Shown here: positions 42,810-52,227 of the stretch, in pieces
How the letters are laid out: each line of letters opens with the position of its first letter
Numbering within the stretch: position 1 is the stretch's first letter
Source of the DNA: Acidimicrobiaceae bacterium
GTDB lineage: Bacteria > Actinomycetota > Acidimicrobiia > Acidimicrobiales > Aldehydirespiratoraceae
Assembly: GCA_009845995.1 (NCBI GenBank)
Contig: VXYK01000013.1
Location: forward strand, 2,010 to 66,009
DNA: 64,000 bases
Direction: 5' to 3'
The notes under the pieces: generated by a model
The model's database searches: none
What the model saw: only the letters and a program-made list of their open reading frames with translations
What the model was told of the DNA's origin: nothing
Position numbers and translations under genes: made by a program

Positions 42810-43892
42810 TCAGAACACGGGAGACACGCCCAGGCCGGGGGATTGGGGAAGGTGCAGTCTGCCGCCTTCGAGGTTGAGGCGGGGGGCCGTGTCTTCGGCG
42901 AGCAGGGTTGAGGTGGCCAAGCCGTGAGCCACTTCCGGCAGGACGGCCGCGGCGAAATGGGCTGCGTGGGCTACTCCTACGGCGCTGTCGATCATGGAGG
43001 TGACCACTGCTCCGGCGCCGGTCTCTTCGGCCATGGCTAAGGCGGCCATGGCCAGGTCAGACCCGCCGAGAGCTTGTGGCTTCACGATCACGACTCTGAT
43101 CGCATCTGTTTTCAGCGCCGCGGCTATATCGCCGACCGTTACAGCCGACTCGTCGACGGCCACTGGGACCACACCTGCAGCACCGACTACGGCTATGCCG
43201 TCGATACCAGCTGTGGGTTCTTCACAAAAGGTGATGTCGTAGTCAGCCATCCTTCGCAACGTGTCAACCGCAGTTTCGATATCCCAGCCGCCGTTGGCAT
43301 CAAGCCGGAGTTCGATGTCGTCGCCTATCGCTGATCGCGTGGCCGCCACTCGGGCCACGTCAGTATTCGAGTCTGTGGCGGCGACCTTCAGTTTGACGGC
43401 GGAGATTCCTTCACTTGCCAGTTCCGCCGCAGCTGCAGCCACTCGTTCTGGTTGGAGGTCCGAGATCAACCCGTTGACCGATACCGAGTGAGGCAACGCC
43501 TCCCGTGGCACGGAGCCGAATCGACCGTTGAGAAGCGAGCCAAGACTCACCCCGTCACTCTGAGCAGCCAAATCAAGGGACGCTCCGGCTATCGCTGCAC
43601 GGGCGTGGGGATGAGTTTCAAGTTCAGCGAGAATCTCCGTCAAACGAGGGTCGTCGACACTGTCGCACTCGCTCAACCGCGGGGCAACCGACTCCAGCCC
43701 TCTCCTGCAGTCATCACAAGATTCTCGCGACCAACCGGGTAACGGGGCTGCCTCTCCCCAGCCGACATGTACGCCGTCACTGATCGCAAACAGCACCCCG
43801 TCTCGGTACTCGTGAACTCCGTGCGCGGTGACCAACGGCGATGCCAGCGCAAGCCGGTAGTCGCGCAGTTCGGTGGTCAGGCCCATGGTCAA
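42810..43892 (-). CDS. menC: o-Succinylbenzoate synthase (enolase superfamily)
   Basis: Enolase-superfamily metal/base motifs (AVKLKV, RLDANGGW, FCEEP). Overlaps menH inside a men gene string. Confidence 0.75.
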   Translation of the reverse strand: MTMGLTTELRDYRLALASPLVTAHGVHEYRDGVLFAISDGVHVGWGEAAPLPGWSRESCDDCRRGLESVAPRLSECDSVDDPRLTEILAELETHPHARAAIAGASLDLAAQSDGVSLGSLLNGRFGSVPREALPHSVSVNGLISDLQPERVAAAAAELASEGISAVKLKVAATDSNTDVARVAATRSAIGDDIELRLDANGGWDIETAVDTLRRMADYDITFCEEPTAGIDGIAVVGAAGVVPVAVDESAVTVGDIAAALKTDAIRVVIVKPQALGGSDLAMAALAMAEETGAGAVVTSMIDSAVGVAHAAHFAAAVLPEVAHGLATSTLLAEDTAPRLNLEGGRLHLPQSPGLGVSPVF

Positions 43893-44719
43893 TCCAAGCC
43901 CATCTGGCGACGGATCACCGCCGCGACCGCGTCGGGTTGCTCTAGATGTGCAGCGTGGCCTGCGTCGTCGATCACAGCGATCTCAGCTCGCGGCATTCGC
44001 GCAGCCAGTTCGACGGAGATCTGCGCGTATTTCGGGTCTTCGACGCCAGTGACGAACACCGTGGGAACGGCGCATGACCTGAGTTCGTCGTGCAACGGTG
44101 CCATCGATCCGGTGCCCGCGGCACCCAAGCTCCGAACCAACCCCACCGCCGAGTTGCGCAACCGCTGCGCCCTCGCCGCTGCCAGAAAGTCCTCCGCGAG
44201 ACGTGCCTGTGTGGCAAACAGCGGATTCGCCATCCAGTTGTCGACGAACTGCTCGAGGCCATCACGCTCAATGCTCTTGGCCAACGCTGCGTCGGACTGT
44301 CGACGAGCAGCTCTTTCGGCTTCTGTGGCCAAACCCGCCGAAGCGCCGATGAGCGTGAGCGAGCGCAGCAGCTCCAGACGTCGGCAAGCAAGTGTCAGCG
44401 CTACCCTGCCGCCCATCGAATAGCCGACCAGATGAAACGGGACGCTCCCATAACTCTCGCCAATTGCTGCGATATGTGCAGCCATCGCATCGACCGAATA
44501 GCTCGCTTCGTCAAGCGGACAACTGCTGCGACCATGACCGACCAGGTCGGGGGCAACTACCTCCGCTTCAGGCTCCAGCCGTTGAGCCAAGCCCTCCATC
44601 GTGGTGCCATCCCCCGTGAAGCCATGCAGCAGAACCACAGTCGGTCCGCTCCCACGGCGCTCGACATGGAGATCCACCCCCTGAGAGACCGTCACTGTGT
44701 TCACTGAAATAGCGTTCAC
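43889..44719 (-). CDS. menH: 2-succinyl-6-hydroxy-2,4-cyclohexadiene-1-carboxylate synthase (alpha/beta hydrolase)
   Basis: VVLLHGFTGDG, nucleophile elbow GYSMGGRVAL, and a C-terminal GHAAHLE. Positioned between menD and menC. Confidence 0.75.
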   Translation of the reverse strand: MNAISVNTVTVSQGVDLHVERRGSGPTVVLLHGFTGDGTTMEGLAQRLEPEAEVVAPDLVGHGRSSCPLDEASYSVDAMAAHIAAIGESYGSVPFHLVGYSMGGRVALTLACRRLELLRSLTLIGASAGLATEAERAARRQSDAALAKSIERDGLEQFVDNWMANPLFATQARLAEDFLAAARAQRLRNSAVGLVRSLGAAGTGSMAPLHDELRSCAVPTVFVTGVEDPKYAQISVELAARMPRAEIAVIDDAGHAAHLEQPDAVAAVIRRQMGLD

Positions 44720-44731
44720 GCGTAGCCCATT

Positions 44732-46540
44732 TCACGAGATGGCAGCGTTGACGGCGCTAGCGATCGCTTGGTGTTGAGCCAGGTCGGCGTCGGGATCTAC
44801 CGGAACCAGTAAAACGTCCACACCGGGCGTATTTCGCTCGCAGCTTGAGCGGAGCGCTTCGGCGAGTTCGGACTCTGAGGTCACCTCGCTGATGCGGACC
44901 CCGCCGACACCGCTGAAGTCGGCCAGGTTCAGTTCGTGGGGAGTCCGAAAGAGCGTCTCGAAGTCCACTTCCCGGCCGCGAGACGCAATCGGAAGCGCCG
45001 CGAAGATACCTCCGCCGTTGTTGTCAACGCACACGACCGTCAGATGCAGGCCACAGCGAGCCGCGCTGAAGAGGGCGCCGAGATCGTGCAGCAGGGCAAG
45101 ATCGCCTATGTAGAGCGCGACGGGACCGTCGTGTTGTGATGCCAAGCCCAACGCAGTCGAGGTGATGCCGTCGATGCCGCTGGCCCCGCGGTTACCGACG
45201 AAATCAATACGAGGACCATCGGTGGCCACAAACGAGTCGAGCTCGCGTACTGGCATTGAGTTGGAGGCCATCAACAAAGTCCCGGAGGGGACCGTCTCGG
45301 TCAGAACCGACGTGACCAGAGCGCTGAGCAACGGACCTCGCCCGAGCTCCTCGGTTATGACTCGGCCGGCGACCAGATCCAGTTCCTTCCAGCGGTCACA
45401 CCAAGCCGACTCTTGGCGCACCGCGGCCCCAACCGCCGACAGCACCGCGACCGGGTCCGCCGCCACATGACGCGTGACAATGAACGAGGGGTCTTGCCAG
45501 CGATTTGCGGGGTCGATCAGGAGCACATGGGTGGGCCGGTGAGCTTCAAGCCACAACCGCAGGGGTTTGGTGGTCGGGGTTCCTCCGAGCCGAATTACCA
45601 CGTCAGGGCACAGTTCCTCGACAACTCCGGCGTGGCGAAGTATGTGATCTGCGTTGGCAATCACGGTCGCGGGCGAATCGCCACGGGCGCGACGGGTACC
45701 CGCGATCGGTTCGCCGATAACAGGCCACGCGGTGGCAGCGCTCAACGCCAGCGCCGCTGACACGACTTCATTCTGGGCTTCGACTCCCCTGGCGGCATCG
45801 GGGCCCACGATGATCACGCCACGTTCGTAAGACACCAGATCTGCCAGCGGGTTGCTTTCGCCGGGCGCGTTGCTGTTGCCGGGCGTAGCCGGAGCCCTTA
45901 CGTTGCCTTTGCCGGGCGTAGCCGGAGCCCTCCAGGCGCTTTCGCCGGGCGCGGTGCTAGCGCCGGGCGTAGCCGGAGCTGGTGCGTCGACTACGGGAAC
46001 TGCAGCGATTGGTTCCAACGGTTCGCGCAGGGGCCAGTTGAGATGGACCGGCCCGGGGTCGATCCCGGTCGCAGAGACCACCGCACGATGGGCGATGAGT
46101 CGGCCCTGAGTCGGAGTCCACTCACCAGCGACCGCCAGATCGGCTGCCCACCGGGTAGCTGCACCATAAATCTTGACTTGGTCGATGGTTTGGGGGGAAC
46201 CCCAGTCTCGCAACTCAGGGGGGCGATCAGCGGTACAGACGATCATCGGCACGCCCGCGTGGTGCGCTTCGATGACCGCCGGAAGGTAATTCGCCGCCGC
46301 GGTACCCGAGGTACTCACCAGCACCGACGGCCGACCCGTGCGGCGGGCTTGGCCGAGCGCAAAGAACCCTGCTGATCGTTCGTCGAGTTGAATCCAAGTG
46401 CGGAGTCTGGGTTGGGCATGCAAAGTAAGAGCCAATGGCGTCGACCTCGAGCCGGGGCTGATCACCACATCGGTCACCCCCTGCTCAACCAGCCCCGCAG
46501 CAAACGAAGCGACCGTGTCGTAGACGAGATCAGAAACCAC
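44732..46540 (-). CDS. menD: 2-succinyl-5-enolpyruvyl-6-hydroxy-3-cyclohexene-1-carboxylate synthase (ThDP-dependent)
   Basis: VVISPGSRSTPLALTL ... LDERSAGFFALG ... STSGTAAANYLPAVIEA are classic MenD N-terminal motifs. ThDP motif GDLALLHD. Confidence 0.9.
   Translation of the reverse strand: MVSDLVYDTVASFAAGLVEQGVTDVVISPGSRSTPLALTLHAQPRLRTWIQLDERSAGFFALGQARRTGRPSVLVSTSGTAAANYLPAVIEAHHAGVPMIVCTADRPPELRDWGSPQTIDQVKIYGAATRWAADLAVAGEWTPTQGRLIAHRAVVSATGIDPGPVHLNWPLREPLEPIAAVPVVDAPAPATPGASTAPGESAWRAPATPGKGNVRAPATPGNSNAPGESNPLADLVSYERGVIIVGPDAARGVEAQNEVVSAALALSAATAWPVIGEPIAGTRRARGDSPATVIANADHILRHAGVVEELCPDVVIRLGGTPTTKPLRLWLEAHRPTHVLLIDPANRWQDPSFIVTRHVAADPVAVLSAVGAAVRQESAWCDRWKELDLVAGRVITEELGRGPLLSALVTSVLTETVPSGTLLMASNSMPVRELDSFVATDGPRIDFVGNRGASGIDGITSTALGLASQHDGPVALYIGDLALLHDLGALFSAARCGLHLTVVCVDNNGGGIFAALPIASRGREVDFETLFRTPHELNLADFSGVGGVRISEVTSESELAEALRSSCERNTPGVDVLLVPVDPDADLAQHQAIASAVNAAIS
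45855..45981. repeat. Imperfect tandem repeats inside menD: GCCGGGCGTAGCCGGAGC three times, and a ~42-bp block duplicated with an 84-bp period
   Basis: Copies at 45878-45895, 45911-45928 and 45962-45979. CTTTCGCCGGGCGCG occurs at 45855 and 45939. They encode the APATPG-rich segment of MenD. Confidence 0.8.
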
Positions 46541-48560
46541 TTGACGCTTCCATCACATCAAGCAGGGCGCGGAGCTTCACACCCGTTTCGGCCAACTCGT
46601 CGGCCGAAACCGACTCGGCGACCACCCCTGCACCCGAGAACAACACCGCCGCCGAACCGCTCACCAAGGCGGATCTCAGAGCCACGCACAACTCTCCGTT
46701 GCCATCGAGATCACACCAGCCGACCGGTGCCGCGTACCAACCTCGATCAAACCCTTCGCGCGCAAGGATCCAGTCAACTGCTGTCTCGGTCGGGGTGCCC
46801 GCAACCGCAGGCGTGGGGTGCAGCACACTGGCGACGCGCAGCACATCCATATCACTTACACCACCCGTTCTTCGCTGAACCTGCGCGGTGATCGGAGTGC
46901 GAAGGTGCAGCACCCGGGCCAAGCGCATGACCTCAGGTTCGGGGTGAAATTTGCCCTGTAGCCCAAGCACTTCGAGTCTTCCGATGATGTCGTCAACAAC
47001 AAACTGATGCTCGGCCCTTGTCTTGGGCGAACTCATCAACTCAGCGACCAGACTCTCATCGGTCTGTGCTATCGCGCCGGTGCTGACCGTGCCGGCGACC
47101 GCTTCAGTCCGGACTGCAGGGCCATCAAGCGCGACGAGCTGCTCAGGACTGGCACCGAGAAACTGTCGGTCACCGACCGCAATGGAGAACACCGCGCAGT
47201 TCTGGTAGCGATGCCGAAGCCGATGCAACACATCAATGGGGTCGACGATGTCTTCTTCGTGGATCCGCGCCAGCACCACTTTGCGAAACTCATCGTCAGC
47301 GATCGCATCAGCCGCATCGTCGACAAGGCTCAGGTAGCGCTGATCATCGGCAACTACGTCACCCGAGGTCACTTCAAAGGGGCCGGTCAGCGGCTCGGGC
47401 AAATCAGCTGCGAAGACATCAAGGCGCTCATCGAGGGCGGTGGTGACTCGCGTCTCGTCTTCACCGTCGCCCACTTTGGCGGCTGCCAACAGCCAAGTGC
47501 CGTCGGGGCGATCAACAACCGTGATCTTTGGGAGCACCCAACGGGCGTCAGGGAAACCAGCCCAATCAGGGCTGGCGGTTCGCCCCTCGAGGGGCAACTC
47601 TACGGACTGTTCCGCGCACGTAAACGAGAATCCGCCGACGAGGACCGGCGCGGGAGCATCTCTGGGTCCGACTCGTTGGGTTCGCACCGCGAGCGCTGCC
47701 CGCGCAGCCGAGGCTGCCGAGAAGCGTCCGTCACCAACGGGGGCAATGGTTTCGACCGCACCGAGACCTACCAAAGAGAGATCGAAATCCGGGCGAATCC
47801 AGAGAGTCCGATGATGTTCAGATGACGCAGCGAACACCGCGACGGGATCGAGCCGTTCGGCCAATCGCCTGCCAACAACGATGGTGCCCCCACCAATGGC
47901 AGCGTCGTCGCTGAGGCGGGCGAGGGCGCGGCTTACCAGCGTTTGCTCGAAGTGGCGGGCAACGAGTCCGGAAACGACAGGGACGAGACGTGCCAGCAAC
48001 CCCACGAGTTCGTCGCGATCACCACCCTGGTGATCTGAGTGACGCTTGAACAGTTCGATCGAGTCGTCGACGACGTCTTCTACGTGAGTGGCGTGGCGCA
48101 TTGCCAGGGCCGTCAATTCTTCGAAACTCACGCCTGAGGCAACCAGGGTGCGGGCGGCGGCGAGCATCTCGACTGCGTCGGGTGAGAAGCGTTGCTCAGC
48201 ACCCTCACCGGTGGGCGTGATCAAACCGGCTCCGACCACGATGTCGATCATGAACTCGGGGATTTCTGCTCGTCGCGCCAGTTCGGTCCGGTCCAGGTCG
48301 GGGTCCGCGGCGTTGCGGTTTGCCAGATCGGCAAGAAGTCCAGAAGCATCACCGGTGGACAGTTCCTTGATCTGGGCCAGCGTGAAACCGCGGTCGGAGA
48401 GGTCGTGTATTTGCCGCAGGCGAGTCAGGTGGGAGTCGTTGTATACGGCGATGCGGCCCTGCCGCGCCGGTGGTGCGAGTAGTTTGCGGCGCTGGTAGTA
48501 GCGGATCGTGTCGACACCGACATTGCCAGCTTCAGCCAGCTCTTCAACTCGGTAGTTCAC
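46530..48560 (-). CDS. menF: MerR-family HTH domain fused to isochorismate synthase
   Basis: From GTG 48560: VNYRVEELAEAGNVGVDTIRYYQRRKLLAPPARQGRIAVYNDSHLTRLRQIHDLSDRGFTLAQIKEL (MerR HTH). A ~200-aa helical region follows, then a ~450-aa chorismate-binding domain (SPEQLV, LHPTPAVAGTP, RGWYAAPVGW, GAGVVAES). One uninterrupted frame. Overlaps menD by 11 nt. Confidence 0.8.
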   Translation of the reverse strand: MNYRVEELAEAGNVGVDTIRYYQRRKLLAPPARQGRIAVYNDSHLTRLRQIHDLSDRGFTLAQIKELSTGDASGLLADLANRNAADPDLDRTELARRAEIPEFMIDIVVGAGLITPTGEGAEQRFSPDAVEMLAAARTLVASGVSFEELTALAMRHATHVEDVVDDSIELFKRHSDHQGGDRDELVGLLARLVPVVSGLVARHFEQTLVSRALARLSDDAAIGGGTIVVGRRLAERLDPVAVFAASSEHHRTLWIRPDFDLSLVGLGAVETIAPVGDGRFSAASAARAALAVRTQRVGPRDAPAPVLVGGFSFTCAEQSVELPLEGRTASPDWAGFPDARWVLPKITVVDRPDGTWLLAAAKVGDGEDETRVTTALDERLDVFAADLPEPLTGPFEVTSGDVVADDQRYLSLVDDAADAIADDEFRKVVLARIHEEDIVDPIDVLHRLRHRYQNCAVFSIAVGDRQFLGASPEQLVALDGPAVRTEAVAGTVSTGAIAQTDESLVAELMSSPKTRAEHQFVVDDIIGRLEVLGLQGKFHPEPEVMRLARVLHLRTPITAQVQRRTGGVSDMDVLRVASVLHPTPAVAGTPTETAVDWILAREGFDRGWYAAPVGWCDLDGNGELCVALRSALVSGSAAVLFSGAGVVAESVSADELAETGVKLRALLDVMEASSGF

Positions 48561-48586: not shown

Positions 48587-48615
48587 GCGAGTCAATTATA
48601 AGAGTGTTTACTCGC
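48587..48615 (-). promoter_or_regulatory. Dyad GCGAGT-N17-ACTCGC enclosing a TATAAT hexamer (minus strand, 48600-48595), ~35 nt upstream of the MerR-menF start
   Basis: Read directly. Candidate promoter with an autoregulatory operator. Confidence 0.4.
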
Positions 48616-48658
48616 TGAGTCTCTACTCCAAAGTTTGTTGTTCGTGCTGAACCCCCTG

Positions 48659-49051
48659 TTACCAGCCGATGCGGTGGCGGAATGATCGAGCTCCCTCGCA
48701 TCGGGCACCCAGTTGTTCTGCACGGGCGATCAGGGCACGGTCTGACGACACGATGGTCACCGCGTTGTCGCCTCCGCTGTCGGATTCGCCGCAGTTGAGC
48801 TCCGTGAGAAGCGCAATGATCTCATCGTCGGCAGCATCAGGATCTGAACGTCCCGCGTAGCGCAACTCAACATTGCCCCGTGTGCCAGCGTGCAGGCCGG
48901 GAGCGGGGCGGCCATCAGCGACCACGACTACCCACTCTTCCAAGTCAGCGGCCACCAGCGCGTCGACGAGCTGAGCCAGCGCGCGGTCACGGTCCTTCCA
49001 CCAGCCATCGGGCTTGGATCCGACCACATTCATGGCATCAACCACGATCAT
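48659..49051 (-). CDS. NYN/PIN-like domain protein (YacP-like predicted RNA-binding nuclease)
   Basis: 130 aa. MIVVDAMNVVGSKPDGWW ... VVVVADG ... ADDEII ... TIVSSDRALIARA is typical of the small actinobacterial NYN-domain family. Confidence 0.65.
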   Translation of the reverse strand: MIVVDAMNVVGSKPDGWWKDRDRALAQLVDALVAADLEEWVVVVADGRPAPGLHAGTRGNVELRYAGRSDPDAADDEIIALLTELNCGESDSGGDNAVTIVSSDRALIARAEQLGARCEGARSFRHRIGW

Positions 49052-49092: not shown

Positions 49093-52000
49093 ATGCCGAT
49101 TACTCTCGAAATCACCGGTTACGGAGAACCGGCGCACGCGGCGCTCGCAAACACCGTCGAGCGCTACAAGCGCGAAGACCCTCTGAGTCCGGTGAGTGTC
49201 ATCGTGTGGTCCAACTACATGGGGATCGCCGCTCGTCGTGGACTCGGGCAGCGCCGCGGCGTAGCAGCAGTCAACTTCCTTACGCCCTACAGGCTCGCCG
49301 AACTGCTCGGATCTGCCGCGGTGGCCGCCACGGGTAGACGGCCGATCTCAACCCCGGTTCTGGCGGGCGCCGTGCGCGCGGCGCTCAGCGATGCACCGGG
49401 CCGTTTCGAGGGAGTTCACACCCACCCGGCAACCGAACGGTCGCTGGTCAGAGCTCACCGGACCCTTTCAGAACTGCCGGCAGACACGCTGCGCAAGATC
49501 TCCGGTGCATCACACCGCACCGCTGATGTGGTTCGCGTGTACCACGCCGTCAATCGCAGAATCGAAGCCGACTATTCCAACGAGCAGGATCTGGTCGACG
49601 CTGCGATCGACACAATCGCCAGCGGAACTCCGATTCCTGCCGAGCTGGGACGACCCATTCTCTTCCTTCCGCAGCGAACCGGCAACAACCAGATCCGCCT
49701 GCTGCGCGCCCTCGGCCGGCACAGGGGATTACACATCATCGCCGCAGTCTCAGGCGTTGCCGACGCCGACGCCACAACACAGCTCACCGTCGAACAACTT
49801 GGGGCTGAGTGGTCGCCGCCACCATCGGTCACAGCGCCTGTCGCCGACCGGGCGCTCAGCGTTTCGGACGCCGACGAAGAAGTGCGCCATGCAGTGCGCA
49901 GCATCGTGGACGCATCACTCGAGGGAATCCCCTTCAACCGTTGCGCGGTGCTGTACGGCAGTCACGACCCCTACGCCCGGATGATCGCGGACGCTTTCGA
50001 CGCAGCAAGAATCGAATGGTTCGGAAAATCTGTGCAATCCACCGAATCTTCGCTGTTGGGTCGAGCACTGCTCGGCATGCTCGGGTTGATCGATCACGAC
50101 TTTTCTCGGCACGACGTCTGTGCATGGTTGGCGAGTGCGCCGGTGCGACGCACCGACAAAAGACCTGTTCCGGCGGCTGCTTGGGAAAGGGCCACACGGG
50201 CGGCCGGCATCGTGTCGGGGCTCGATCAGTGGATCAGTCGCCTGGCCCGCTTGGTCGACGACTTGAACGCAGATGCTCAACTCTTCGAGCACGACGAAGA
50301 GCAAGAGTGGCGCGTTCGCCGCTTGCGCAAAGAAGCCGCGCACGCCTCCGAGTTGGCTGCGTTCATCACCAAACTGGCAGCCGACCTCCATCCCGGCGAC
50401 AGCCAGAGATCATGGTCGGGCATCGCCGGCTGGTGCACCAAACTGCAGCGCACCTACTTCGGCAACGAGGCGTCCCGCGACGACTGGCCGTTACATGAGC
50501 GACGTGCGGCAGAGCGCATCGACGCCGCGATCTCCAGGATCGGCGACCTGGACGGGATCGACCCGAATCCCAGCTTGACTGCTTTCCGCCGAGCGCTGGA
50601 ACTCGAACTTGCCGACGATCTGGGCGTCCAGGGAACCTTCGGTCACGGGGTGCTGATCGGCCCTCTTCATCTGGGGGTCGGACTCGAACTGGACCACGTG
50701 ATCGTGCTCGGGTTGGCTGAGGGGACCACCCCTGAACGTCGCCGGGACGACCCGCTGTTGCCCGATCACATCCGCGCGGTCGCAGGACCTGCACTTCCGA
50801 CCCGGGCGGAGAGCACACAGGACACGCACCGGGCCTTGCTGGCCGTAATGGCGGCTGCTGAGCACACGATGTTCACGTTTCCCCGCGGGGATCTTCGCCG
50901 GAACGCTCAGCGAGCTCCGAGCCGCTGGTTGCTCGATACGTGTGAAGCGCACGACGGTGTGCGGCCGACAGCGGACGATCTCGCCCGCAGCACCGGCGAC
51001 TGGTTCGTTGAGGTGCCTTCCTTCGTGGCCGGGTTGCGCTCCATCTCGTTTCCGGCTCACAACCAGGAATATGACATGCGTGCCGTTCTTGACTGGGCCG
51101 AAGACGGCCACGACATCTCCGATTCACCACTGGTGCAGCAACGCCGAGAACTGAGCCTCGGAGCGAGTCTCATCTCGAGTCGTAATTCGAATCGCTTCAC
51201 ACGCTACGACGGCAATCTGCGCCAAAGCCTCAGCGCAACCGCGCTGGAGTCTCTGAAGGCGAAGGGACAAGTGACTTCTGCGAGCAGGCTCGAAATGTGG
51301 GCCAAATGTCCACACGCCTTCTTTGTGCGTCACATCCTCGGCATAAACCCTGTCGAGGATCCCGAGGAGCAGTACCGGATCAGTCCTCTGGAGTTGGGCA
51401 CGCTCTTTCATCTGGCGCTGGAGCGCTGGATCGAACAGGCACGCGCCAAGGGGACACTGCCTGCCGCGTCGGAGCCATGGAGCGACGACGAGGTCGACCT
51501 CCTCATTGAGATCGGCCGGCAGGAGGCTGTCCGGCTCGAGAACCGAGGCCTCGTCGGGCGAGCGGTCTACTGGCAGCGGGACAAACAGGTCTTTCTCGAC
51601 GATCTCCGCAGATTCAGCCTGTTTGACTTTGAGCAGCGCTCCGAACGCGCGACCAGCTCGATTGCTTCGGAACTCCGGTTCGGTCTGCCCATGAGCGATC
51701 AGGGACCGATCGCCATCTCGCTTCCCGACGGCCGAACGCTCAATCTACGCGGTGCCATTGATCGAGTGGATGAGGACCCAGAGGGAAATCTGCTGGTAAT
51801 CGACTACAAAACGGGTTCCGCAAGGACGTTCAAGAAGCTTGACGAGGATCCGCTCAGAGGCGGCACCAGCCTCCAACTCTTGCTCTATGCCCTGGCCGCT
51901 CGGATATTGCTCGATCGCGCTGACGCGCCCACGTTCGGTTCGTACTGGTTCGTCACGCGCCGAGGCGGGTTCCGACCGCAGGGCTATTCGATAACTCCAG

Positions 52001-52227
52001 AACTGGAAGCCGGAGGGCTGCGCATGATCGCCGACATCATCGACTGCATCGAATCGGGGCTGTTCCCCGCGCACCCCGCACCGCCAAAATTTCGTCCTTG
52101 GGTCGACTGCTACTTCTGTGAGCCCGACGGTTTGGGCCTCTCTCATCAATACTCGGACTGGCTGCGCATGCACGGTGATCCCGAACTTCAGCCCTATCTC
52201 GAGATCAACGGAGACGACCATGACTGA
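49093..52227 (+). CDS. AddB-like helicase-nuclease subunit (PD-(D/E)XK nuclease; no Walker A seen)
   Basis: ATG 49093. The track ORF from 48880 is an Arg/Pro-rich over-extension antisense to the NYN gene. The C-terminal nuclease motif is GAIDRVDEDPEGNLLVIDYKTG. Cysteines in AKCPHAFF and VDCYFCEPDG fit an Fe-S/RecB-type nuclease domain. Overlaps the next gene by 8 nt. Confidence 0.75.
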   Translation: MPITLEITGYGEPAHAALANTVERYKREDPLSPVSVIVWSNYMGIAARRGLGQRRGVAAVNFLTPYRLAELLGSAAVAATGRRPISTPVLAGAVRAALSDAPGRFEGVHTHPATERSLVRAHRTLSELPADTLRKISGASHRTADVVRVYHAVNRRIEADYSNEQDLVDAAIDTIASGTPIPAELGRPILFLPQRTGNNQIRLLRALGRHRGLHIIAAVSGVADADATTQLTVEQLGAEWSPPPSVTAPVADRALSVSDADEEVRHAVRSIVDASLEGIPFNRCAVLYGSHDPYARMIADAFDAARIEWFGKSVQSTESSLLGRALLGMLGLIDHDFSRHDVCAWLASAPVRRTDKRPVPAAAWERATRAAGIVSGLDQWISRLARLVDDLNADAQLFEHDEEQEWRVRRLRKEAAHASELAAFITKLAADLHPGDSQRSWSGIAGWCTKLQRTYFGNEASRDDWPLHERRAAERIDAAISRIGDLDGIDPNPSLTAFRRALELELADDLGVQGTFGHGVLIGPLHLGVGLELDHVIVLGLAEGTTPERRRDDPLLPDHIRAVAGPALPTRAESTQDTHRALLAVMAAAEHTMFTFPRGDLRRNAQRAPSRWLLDTCEAHDGVRPTADDLARSTGDWFVEVPSFVAGLRSISFPAHNQEYDMRAVLDWAEDGHDISDSPLVQQRRELSLGASLISSRNSNRFTRYDGNLRQSLSATALESLKAKGQVTSASRLEMWAKCPHAFFVRHILGINPVEDPEEQYRISPLELGTLFHLALERWIEQARAKGTLPAASEPWSDDEVDLLIEIGRQEAVRLENRGLVGRAVYWQRDKQVFLDDLRRFSLFDFEQRSERATSSIASELRFGLPMSDQGPIAISLPDGRTLNLRGAIDRVDEDPEGNLLVIDYKTGSARTFKKLDEDPLRGGTSLQLLLYALAARILLDRADAPTFGSYWFVTRRGGFRPQGYSITPELEAGGLRMIADIIDCIESGLFPAHPAPPKFRPWVDCYFCEPDGLGLSHQYSDWLRMHGDPELQPYLEINGDDHD

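Follow-up and report, generated by a model that had tools for sequence, protein, structure and literature searches.

A MerR-type regulator module fused to the isochorismate synthase MenF and a putative operator at the promoter of the fused gene in Acidimicrobiia

Introduction

Can a transcription regulator and the enzyme whose operon it may control be one and the same polypeptide, and what would each part then do? This question is raised by a 64,000-nucleotide (nt) stretch of DNA from an uncultured Acidimicrobiaceae bacterium (assembly GCA_009845995.1, contig VXYK01000013.1, positions 2,010 to 66,009 of the forward strand; "the window" hereafter), in which the first gene of an operon for menaquinone biosynthesis encodes a MerR-type DNA-binding domain followed in frame by the isochorismate synthase MenF. 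A preliminary description of the locus had proposed that such a fusion couples the pathway to transcription or, alternatively, that the enzyme fold had been recruited as a sensor. Literature searches returned no description of a published fusion of MerR with an isochorismate synthase or MenF, and no described case of a dedicated transcriptional regulator of menaquinone biosynthesis or of the men operon. In databases, the fused proteins are annotated simply as "isochorismate synthase." In most homologues, the middle region has a precomputed assignment to a Pfam family, PF28507, which apparently belongs to a newer Pfam release; a literature search for it gave no relevant result. The organisms concerned are uncultured, and all that is proposed here derives from sequence. 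We consider it likely, with a probability of roughly 70%, that the protein is bifunctional, comprising a dedicated regulator of the men operon joined to an active isochorismate synthase and regulating its own operon.

Results

A single frame encodes a MerR-type module and MenF

The fused gene occupies positions 46530 to 48560 of the minus strand as an unbroken frame of 676 codons plus stop, beginning with GTG. Homologues of the fused protein are 660 to 690 amino acids (aa) long, which supports this GTG as the correct start. A longer reading from an ATG at position 48701 was rejected, as it would overlap the upstream open reading frame (ORF) and begin 5′ of the promoter described below. Both Pfam families that had been expected were matched by the protein: MerR_1 on residues 3 to 67 with 72.7 bits (cutoff, 21.6) and Chorismate_bind on residues 406 to 662 with 211.9 bits. 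The NCBIfam model for isochorismate synthase, TIGR00543, scored 290.8 bits (cutoff, 224.75), and the longer model NF005459 aligned to residues 231 to 672. Thus, the MerR helix-turn-helix at the N terminus and the full chorismate-binding domain that had been read from the translation were both recovered.

Four parts and a short linker could be distinguished on the minus strand. A canonical MerR winged helix-turn-helix (wHTH), termed R1, spans residues 1 to 70 (48351 to 48560) and is followed by a short linker helix (residues 71 to 87; 48300 to 48350). The next part is a degenerate second MerR-like winged helix, R2 (residues 88 to 157; 48090 to 48299), from which a helical hairpin continues (residues 158 to 222; 47895 to 48089). 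The MenF domain comprises residues 225 to 676 (46533 to 47888) and was delimited by TIGR00543, by alignment to the Escherichia coli MenF structure 2eua, and by Foldseek. An AlphaFold model of the whole protein had a mean predicted local distance difference test (pLDDT) score of 74.6, and a separate model of residues 1 to 230 reached 79.9; both are predictions of monomers, and the hairpin is only moderately confident in them.

A scan of species-representative genomes revealed 28 full-length fused loci, including that of the window and 27 from other species-level genomes, with 36 to 92% identity in the N-terminal module. The record titles include "Ca. Aldehydirespiratoraceae," "Ca. Microthrix," and "Ca. 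Poriferisodalis." A further 11 fused loci begin at R2 and lack R1. Stitched tblastn coverage can make a split pair of regulator and menF resemble a fusion: in two "Ca. Microthrix" loci (L038 and L042), a match extended over residues 4 to 671, yet a stop and a 30-nt gap separate the regulator from menF.

The fused frame might in principle be an artifact in which two genes were merged because a frameshift entered during sequencing or a stop codon was overlooked. In relatives, the regulator and menF genes overlap by just 4 to 10 nt in different frames, and one insertion or deletion could merge them. However, the same frame recurs in the full-length fused loci and in the 11 lacking R1, which come from many studies and include closed chromosomes, and the fused forms make up a supported clade in phylogenetic trees. 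We therefore give an artifact practically no weight and regard the frame as a single gene. An internal start that would yield free MenF was also looked for at the junction of the two parts. The only start-type codons there were TTG233, GTG242, and TTG263, none of them with a purine-rich ribosome-binding site on its 5′ side, which speaks only weakly against such a start.

The N-terminal module resembles a complete regulator

In sequence comparisons with the PDB, R1 matched MerR, CadR, and MtaN, and GlnR was among the weak matches. R1 was modeled with a pLDDT of about 90 and comprises helices 5 to 11 and 16 to 24, a wing, and helices 42 to 56 and 61 to 68. Its recognition helix reads VDTIRYYQRRKLL. 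Residues V16, D17, T18, R20, Y21, Y22, and Q23 were invariant across 30 fused orthologues, and the residues of the recognition helix were unchanged down to an overall identity of 36%. In the place of the long coiled-coil helix of canonical MerR proteins, the models showed a short helix (residues 72/73 to 82/83) of low to moderate confidence.

The second helical region had been described as a degenerate MerR repeat, and several comparisons bear this out. A profile-profile comparison of R1 with R2 (hhalign) aligned the two in register with an E value of 4.9e-5. Pfam MerR_1 matched 13 of 14 orthologous R2 pieces, in each case below threshold (best E value, 2.9e-5), and Pfam reports two MerR_1 stretches in stand-alone relatives of the regulator. 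In the N-terminal model, R2 (pLDDT, 85 to 95) consists of helices 91 to 98 and 102 to 110, a wing, and helices 127 to 141 and 146 to 177, and this order of helix, helix, wing, helix, and helix is shared with R1. Since the counterpart of the recognition helix, PEFMIDIVVGAG, contains no basic residues, we infer that R2 does not bind DNA. A further long helix (residues 182 to 222) follows and forms the hairpin together with helix 146 to 177. Residues P194, L199, V200, H203, F204, T207, L208, R211, A212, and R215 of the hairpin are invariant.

Among 1.84 billion representatives, no more than 302 clusters contained the R2-hairpin domain at an E value of ≤0.001, which makes it a rare one. The family consists mostly of proteins of 225 to 285 aa that carry the domain at approximately residues 90 to 235, and where the source gives a name, it is "MerR family transcriptional regulator" of Acidimicrobiales. 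When a profile of R2 and the hairpin was compared with PDB sequences, the best match was the C-terminal domain of Rv1828 from Mycobacterium tuberculosis (5ydc), which was marginal (E value, 0.0027; 72 positions). Foldseek likewise returned SCO5550 (2dg6; 231 columns) and 5ydc (template modeling [TM] score, 0.57).

Split, fused, and headless forms

To place the fusion among its relatives, 401 Acidimicrobiia genomes were searched with a profile of residues 1 to 230. Full-length matches were found in many of these genomes, in frames of about 240 to 330 aa only, while a profile of the complete fused protein had a one-frame match in 4 of the 401 genomes, all from the family to which the window belongs. 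Many other Acidimicrobiia encode a stand-alone regulator of about 250 aa that consists of a MerR wHTH, a MerR-like R2, and a helical hairpin. These split loci occur in two arrangements. Either the end of the regulator gene runs 4 to 10 nt, in another frame, into menF or into a menF-menD fusion, or the regulator gene is followed first by ubiE/menG and then by menF. Since the stand-alone regulator adjoins menF or ubiE-menF in relatives, the fused protein is, judging from gene arrangement, the product of joining neighboring regulator and menF genes.

In a tree of the N-terminal module, the clade containing the window was fused throughout (31 of 31 members; support, 99). A second fused group (Poriferisodalis, L033) was interleaved with split forms. 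The tree needed three changes between the fused and split states, although a single fused clade was not rejected by the approximately unbiased (AU) test (P = 0.20). Well-supported branches of the MenF-domain tree forced at least two such changes. The fusion may thus have arisen once or repeatedly. In the latter tree, the forms without R1 stood in two places, and a single clade of them was rejected (AU test, P = 0.0015; the group was named after the first tree had been seen). Owing to these two placements, we conclude that fused proteins lost R1 at least twice. No separate MerR gene was present within 4 kb of the 11 fused loci lacking R1, and no stand-alone module was found elsewhere in the 7 such genomes that were checked. 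These lineages kept R2 and the hairpin in a highly conserved form.

Two further gene arrangements were observed in the wider family. Some Acidimicrobiia with a split regulator encode a MenF-MenD fusion of 1,020 aa that has Chorismate_bind and three thiamine diphosphate (ThDP)-enzyme domains (L084:3714-6776 and L085:3714-6776). Paralogues of the regulator (about 250 aa and about 30% identical) are encoded directly 5′ of proteins of about 790 aa with two CoA-transferase family III stretches (L116:3268-5655, L117:3199-5601, and L119:3266-5626). The latter loci suggest that the wider regulator family also serves operons other than men.

Paired palindromes occupy the promoter of the fused genes

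A conserved element 5′ of the −10 box emerged when upstream regions were aligned. In 58 aligned promoters, the palindrome (G)GAGT-N4-ACTC(C) stops 1 nt short of the −10 box, and it is doubled in the fused clade, where the element reads GAGT-N4-ACTC-N3-GAGT-N4-ACTC and, after 1 nt, is followed by the −10 box (consensus, cTAcAAT). The window carries this putative operator as GAGTAGAGACTCAGCGAGTAAACACTC at positions 48602 to 48628. It consists of two 12-bp palindromes 3 nt apart, the distal one being GAGTAGAGACTC (48617 to 48628) and the proximal one GAGTAAACACTC (48602 to 48613), and the entire 27-mer is identical on both strands. The −10 box TATAAT lies 1 nt 3′ of it (48595 to 48600, minus strand). 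Transcription would start at about position 48588, so that some 28 nt of leader would precede the GTG start codon (48558 to 48560). Many orthologues have a start codon only 6 nt 3′ of the −10 box and hence a leaderless mRNA, which indicates that translation begins at the MerR N terminus. The centers of the half-sites of GGAGT-N4-ACTCC are about 10 bp apart, a spacing that would suit a dimer in successive major grooves.

The occurrence of the element followed that of R1. Allowing ≤4 mismatches, the double element was present 5′ of 29 of 30 loci that bear R1 and of none of the 11 fused loci that lack it. Stand-alone regulators shared the motif: the proximal palindrome with its −10 box, in the form (g)GAG[TC]-N4-[AG]CTC(c), preceded 28 of 30 of them in the split loci. 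Searched on both strands of 1.06 Mb of fetched loci, this loose pattern gave 55 matches, 50 of which lay at the expected upstream site (48 in regulator-bearing loci and 2 in loci without R1). In the complete 3.26-Mb genome, the exact double element occurred once (0.0005 expected). The loose pattern had only 7 matches there, and only the one at menF has both a good −10 box and a long gene. A wider regulon was not supported, as near-matches to the double operator were at chance level (1 versus 0.65 expected at ≤2 mismatches and 11 versus 9.8 expected at ≤3 mismatches). Another candidate, a dyad GCGAGT-N17-ACTCGC around TATAAT (48587 to 48615), was discarded because its downstream arm is already gone in a relative that is 88% identical (L001).

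These data bear on the question of whether the head does anything at all. The MerR domain could be vestigial and regulate nothing, with the protein being purely an enzyme and the palindrome being bound by another factor or being a mere part of the promoter. The repeated loss of R1 from a gene that was itself kept is in line with this, as are two loci without R1 (L020 and L023) in which GAGCCGAGACTC-G-TAGCAT persists about 70 nt 5′ of the R2 start, seemingly as a remnant of the proximal palindrome and −10 box. However, R1 has kept its DNA-contacting residues unchanged across deep divergence, the double operator is distributed as described above, and the same motif accompanies the stand-alone regulator. 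We consequently judge a vestigial head to be improbable.

Two ORFs flank the promoter region on its upstream side. An ORF of 130 aa (48659 to 49051, minus strand) lies directly 5′ of the operator, and its stop is 30 nt before the distal palindrome; it had no Pfam or NCBIfam match. Read-through from this ORF into menF may occur. A large divergent ORF (49093 to 52227, plus strand) encodes an AddB-like C-terminal PD-(D/E)XK nuclease domain and is unrelated to the fusion.

The MenF domain retains its catalytic residues

The enzyme part was compared with E. coli MenF by means of a phmmer alignment to 2eua, from which the equivalent positions were counted. K427 corresponds to the catalytic lysine K190 and E473 to the catalytic glutamate E240. 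E517 corresponds to E284 and E655/E658 to E413/E416, all of which are Mg2+-binding glutamates, while A585 and R629 correspond to the active-site residues A344 and R387. We take these residues to have the roles that the MenF literature gives them in the E. coli enzyme. All seven positions were invariant in an alignment of 42 homologues, so that the conservation of the catalytic lysine and glutamate, which had been proposed as a check, was found together with that of the Mg2+ ligands. The best PDB matches of the AlphaFold model were the MenF structures 3bzm, 3bzn, and 2eua, with Foldseek E values of about 1e-23 (3bzm: E value, 1.8e-23; TM score, 0.78).

The fused gene is the first of four in the order menF-menD-menH-menC on the same strand. 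menD (44732 to 46540, GTG start; TIGR00173, 411.6 bits; cutoff, 244.2) starts within the end of menF with an overlap of 11 nt. It is followed by menH (43889 to 44719; TIGR03695, 232.7 bits; cutoff, 208.55) and by menC as the last gene of the operon (42810 to 43892; TIGR01927, 139.5 bits; cutoff, 130.55). The ORF after menC is SMP-30/gluconolactonase-like and lies outside the men pathway. The genome (3.26 Mb, 95.5% complete) contains three chorismate-binding genes, namely the fused gene, TrpE, and a PabB-like fusion. As the latter two are TrpE and PabB-like, the fused protein is the only candidate isochorismate synthase found in this genome.

Enzyme folds frequently become sensors in one-component regulators, and the preliminary description had raised this alternative for the MenF domain. 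The protein would then be a transcription factor only, with a catalytically dead chorismate-binding sensor in the style of MocR/GabR. The invariance of all seven active-site and Mg2+-binding residues speaks against this alternative, as does the TIGR00543 score above cutoff. Moreover, the genome has no other isochorismate synthase, yet menD, menH, and menC directly follow. We therefore dismiss recruitment of the fold as a mere sensor as highly improbable.

Two side observations concern the genes named here. The ThDP domains of MenD are separated by a repetitive insert rich in Pro, Ala, and Gly, APATPGASTAPGESAWRAPATPGKGNVRAPATPGNSNAPGESNP (window positions 45850 to 45990). The PabB-like gene (L082:787-2931, contig C11 of the same genome) encodes a 714-aa fusion whose C-terminal ~200 residues match PRK07546 "hypothetical protein" models.

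A putative mode of action

Taken together, a dedicated regulator joined to active MenF could work as follows. Dimers of R1 would bind the (G)GAGT-N4-ACTC(C) palindromes, which in the window stretch from the −35 region of the promoter to within 1 nt of the −10 box (48602 to 48628). Because these palindromes cover the promoter of the fused gene itself, the protein would be autoregulatory, and because no other good site is present in the genome, its control would be limited to menF-menD-menH-menC. The MenF domain would convert chorismate to isochorismate by means of K427 and E473.

As for the sign of regulation, we lean somewhat toward repression by occupancy rather than toward activation of the MerR type, in which the DNA is distorted. 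In the fused clade, the −35 region lies within the sites, and a biosynthetic operon that begins with the gene for its own regulator would be well served by autorepression. A MerR-type spacer of 19 bp could not be distinguished from one of 17 bp by the −35 match, since the −35 hexamer is equally weak at both distances.

R2 and the hairpin would be the inherited C-terminal domain of the regulator, related to that of Rv1828/FtsR, and probably serve dimerization and ligand sensing. The ligand may be a late lipophilic product of the pathway, e.g., 1,4-dihydroxy-2-naphthoate (DHNA) or (demethyl)menaquinone. Foldseek also matched the adenylyl cyclase Rv1264 in its helical regulatory domain, which binds a fatty acid. 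Fatty acids are likewise given as the ligand of Rv1828 in the table of a review (PMC9909328). Menaquinone or another lipophilic product of the pathway is therefore a reasonable guess, though nothing firmer.

Four points weigh against a bifunctional regulator-enzyme of this kind. The loss of R1 on at least two occasions shows that some lineages can do without DNA binding. The candidate −35 hexamers are poor at both spacings, with a mean match to TTGACA of 2.55/6 at 17 bp and 2.78/6 at 19 bp (range, 2.5 to 3.2 of 6). R1 lacks the long coiled-coil helix that dimerizes canonical MerR proteins, and the long helices of the AlphaFold models (146 to 177 and 182 to 222) come after R2, which makes the oligomeric state of the fused protein a guess. 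Finally, the ligand proposal has as its basis only a distant similarity (E value, 0.0027) and the review-table entry (PMC9909328).

How far the two halves of the protein might influence each other is a separate question. In a true trigger enzyme, MenF would act as the sensor, and chorismate, isochorismate, Mg2+, or turnover would alter DNA binding via R2 and the hairpin, so that the operon would be transcribed in step with substrate supply or flux. The covalent link has persisted across the entire clade of the window, and the hairpin leads nearly straight into the first MenF strand (helix to residue 216/222 and strand from residue 225 in the models). The high conservation of R2 and the hairpin even where R1 is absent suggests that they work with MenF. 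However, the unfused regulator keeps the operator and must therefore either sense by itself or manage without a sensor, and the data gave no sign of contact or allostery between the domains. We regard this mechanism as rather unlikely.

Because R2 and the hairpin were retained on MenF after the loss of R1, their conservation suggests that they do something for the enzyme. A tentative, broader possibility is a flux or end-product switch, in which the R2-hairpin domain would bind (demethyl)menaquinone or DHNA, or would read the catalytic state of MenF, and would set both the transcription of menFDHC via R1 and the activity of MenF. Such a switch would account for the persistence of R2 and the hairpin in lineages that discarded the DNA-binding head. 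The earlier proposal that the fusion implies pathway-coupled transcription is thus upheld in part. The conserved operator on the gene's own promoter supports transcriptional control, whereas enzyme-mediated coupling to flux is only possible, as the regulator module is older and self-contained, has a C-terminal domain of its own, and adjoins menF in relatives.

Discussion

The locus of the window points to a candidate family of men regulators with a precise and testable operator, a regulon of a single operon, and natural split, fused, and headless variants. These variants trace how a local regulator may have become part of the enzyme that it controls and how the leftover sensor domain then stayed as an appendage of the enzyme. 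If the domains influence each other, the protein would represent a new MerR-based trigger enzyme and a simple system for studying MerR heads without the usual coiled coil.

Among known regulators, FtsR/Rv1828 and SCO5550 come closest in architecture to the module of the fused protein, albeit with marginal similarity, in that an N-terminal MerR wHTH is followed by a helical C-terminal domain that opens with a degenerate second wHTH-like unit. FtsR/Rv1828 controls ftsZ via a 25-bp inverted repeat, AACCCTAAAGTAAAGGTTGAGGGTA (PMC6683498). The regulator described here is instead associated with the men operon and a GAGT-N4-ACTC motif, and FtsR is not fused to an enzyme. The canonical MerR activators (MerR, CueR, SoxR, and BmrR) share with it a wHTH above the Pfam cutoff and an operator dyad inside the core promoter, between −35 and −10. 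Classical activation by MerR requires a spacer of 19 to 20 bp (PMC9909328). In contrast to these activators, the fused protein has no long coiled-coil helix directly after R1, and its putative operator is a short palindrome that is doubled in the fused clade and abuts the −10 box.

The pairing of GlnR/TnrA with glutamine synthetase in Bacillus offers another parallel, as the activity of a MerR-family DNA-binding domain is tied there to the key enzyme of the pathway under its control. In that system, the C-terminal tail of the regulator is bound by the enzyme as an independent protein, whereas the enzyme considered here is covalently joined. The trigger enzymes PutA, BirA, and NadR likewise unite DNA binding and catalysis in a single polypeptide and act on their own operon, a likeness that here holds at the sequence level. 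They use ribbon-helix-helix or other wHTH/HTH domains and different enzymes. Unlike dead-sensor regulators of the MocR/GabR type, the fused protein keeps invariant catalytic residues. On the enzyme side, it shares with E. coli MenF (2eua and 3bzm) the fold (TM score, 0.78 to 0.80), the catalytic lysine and glutamate, the Mg2+ ligands, and the first classical step of the men pathway, but it is only about 26% identical in sequence and adds an N-terminal regulatory module of 224 residues.

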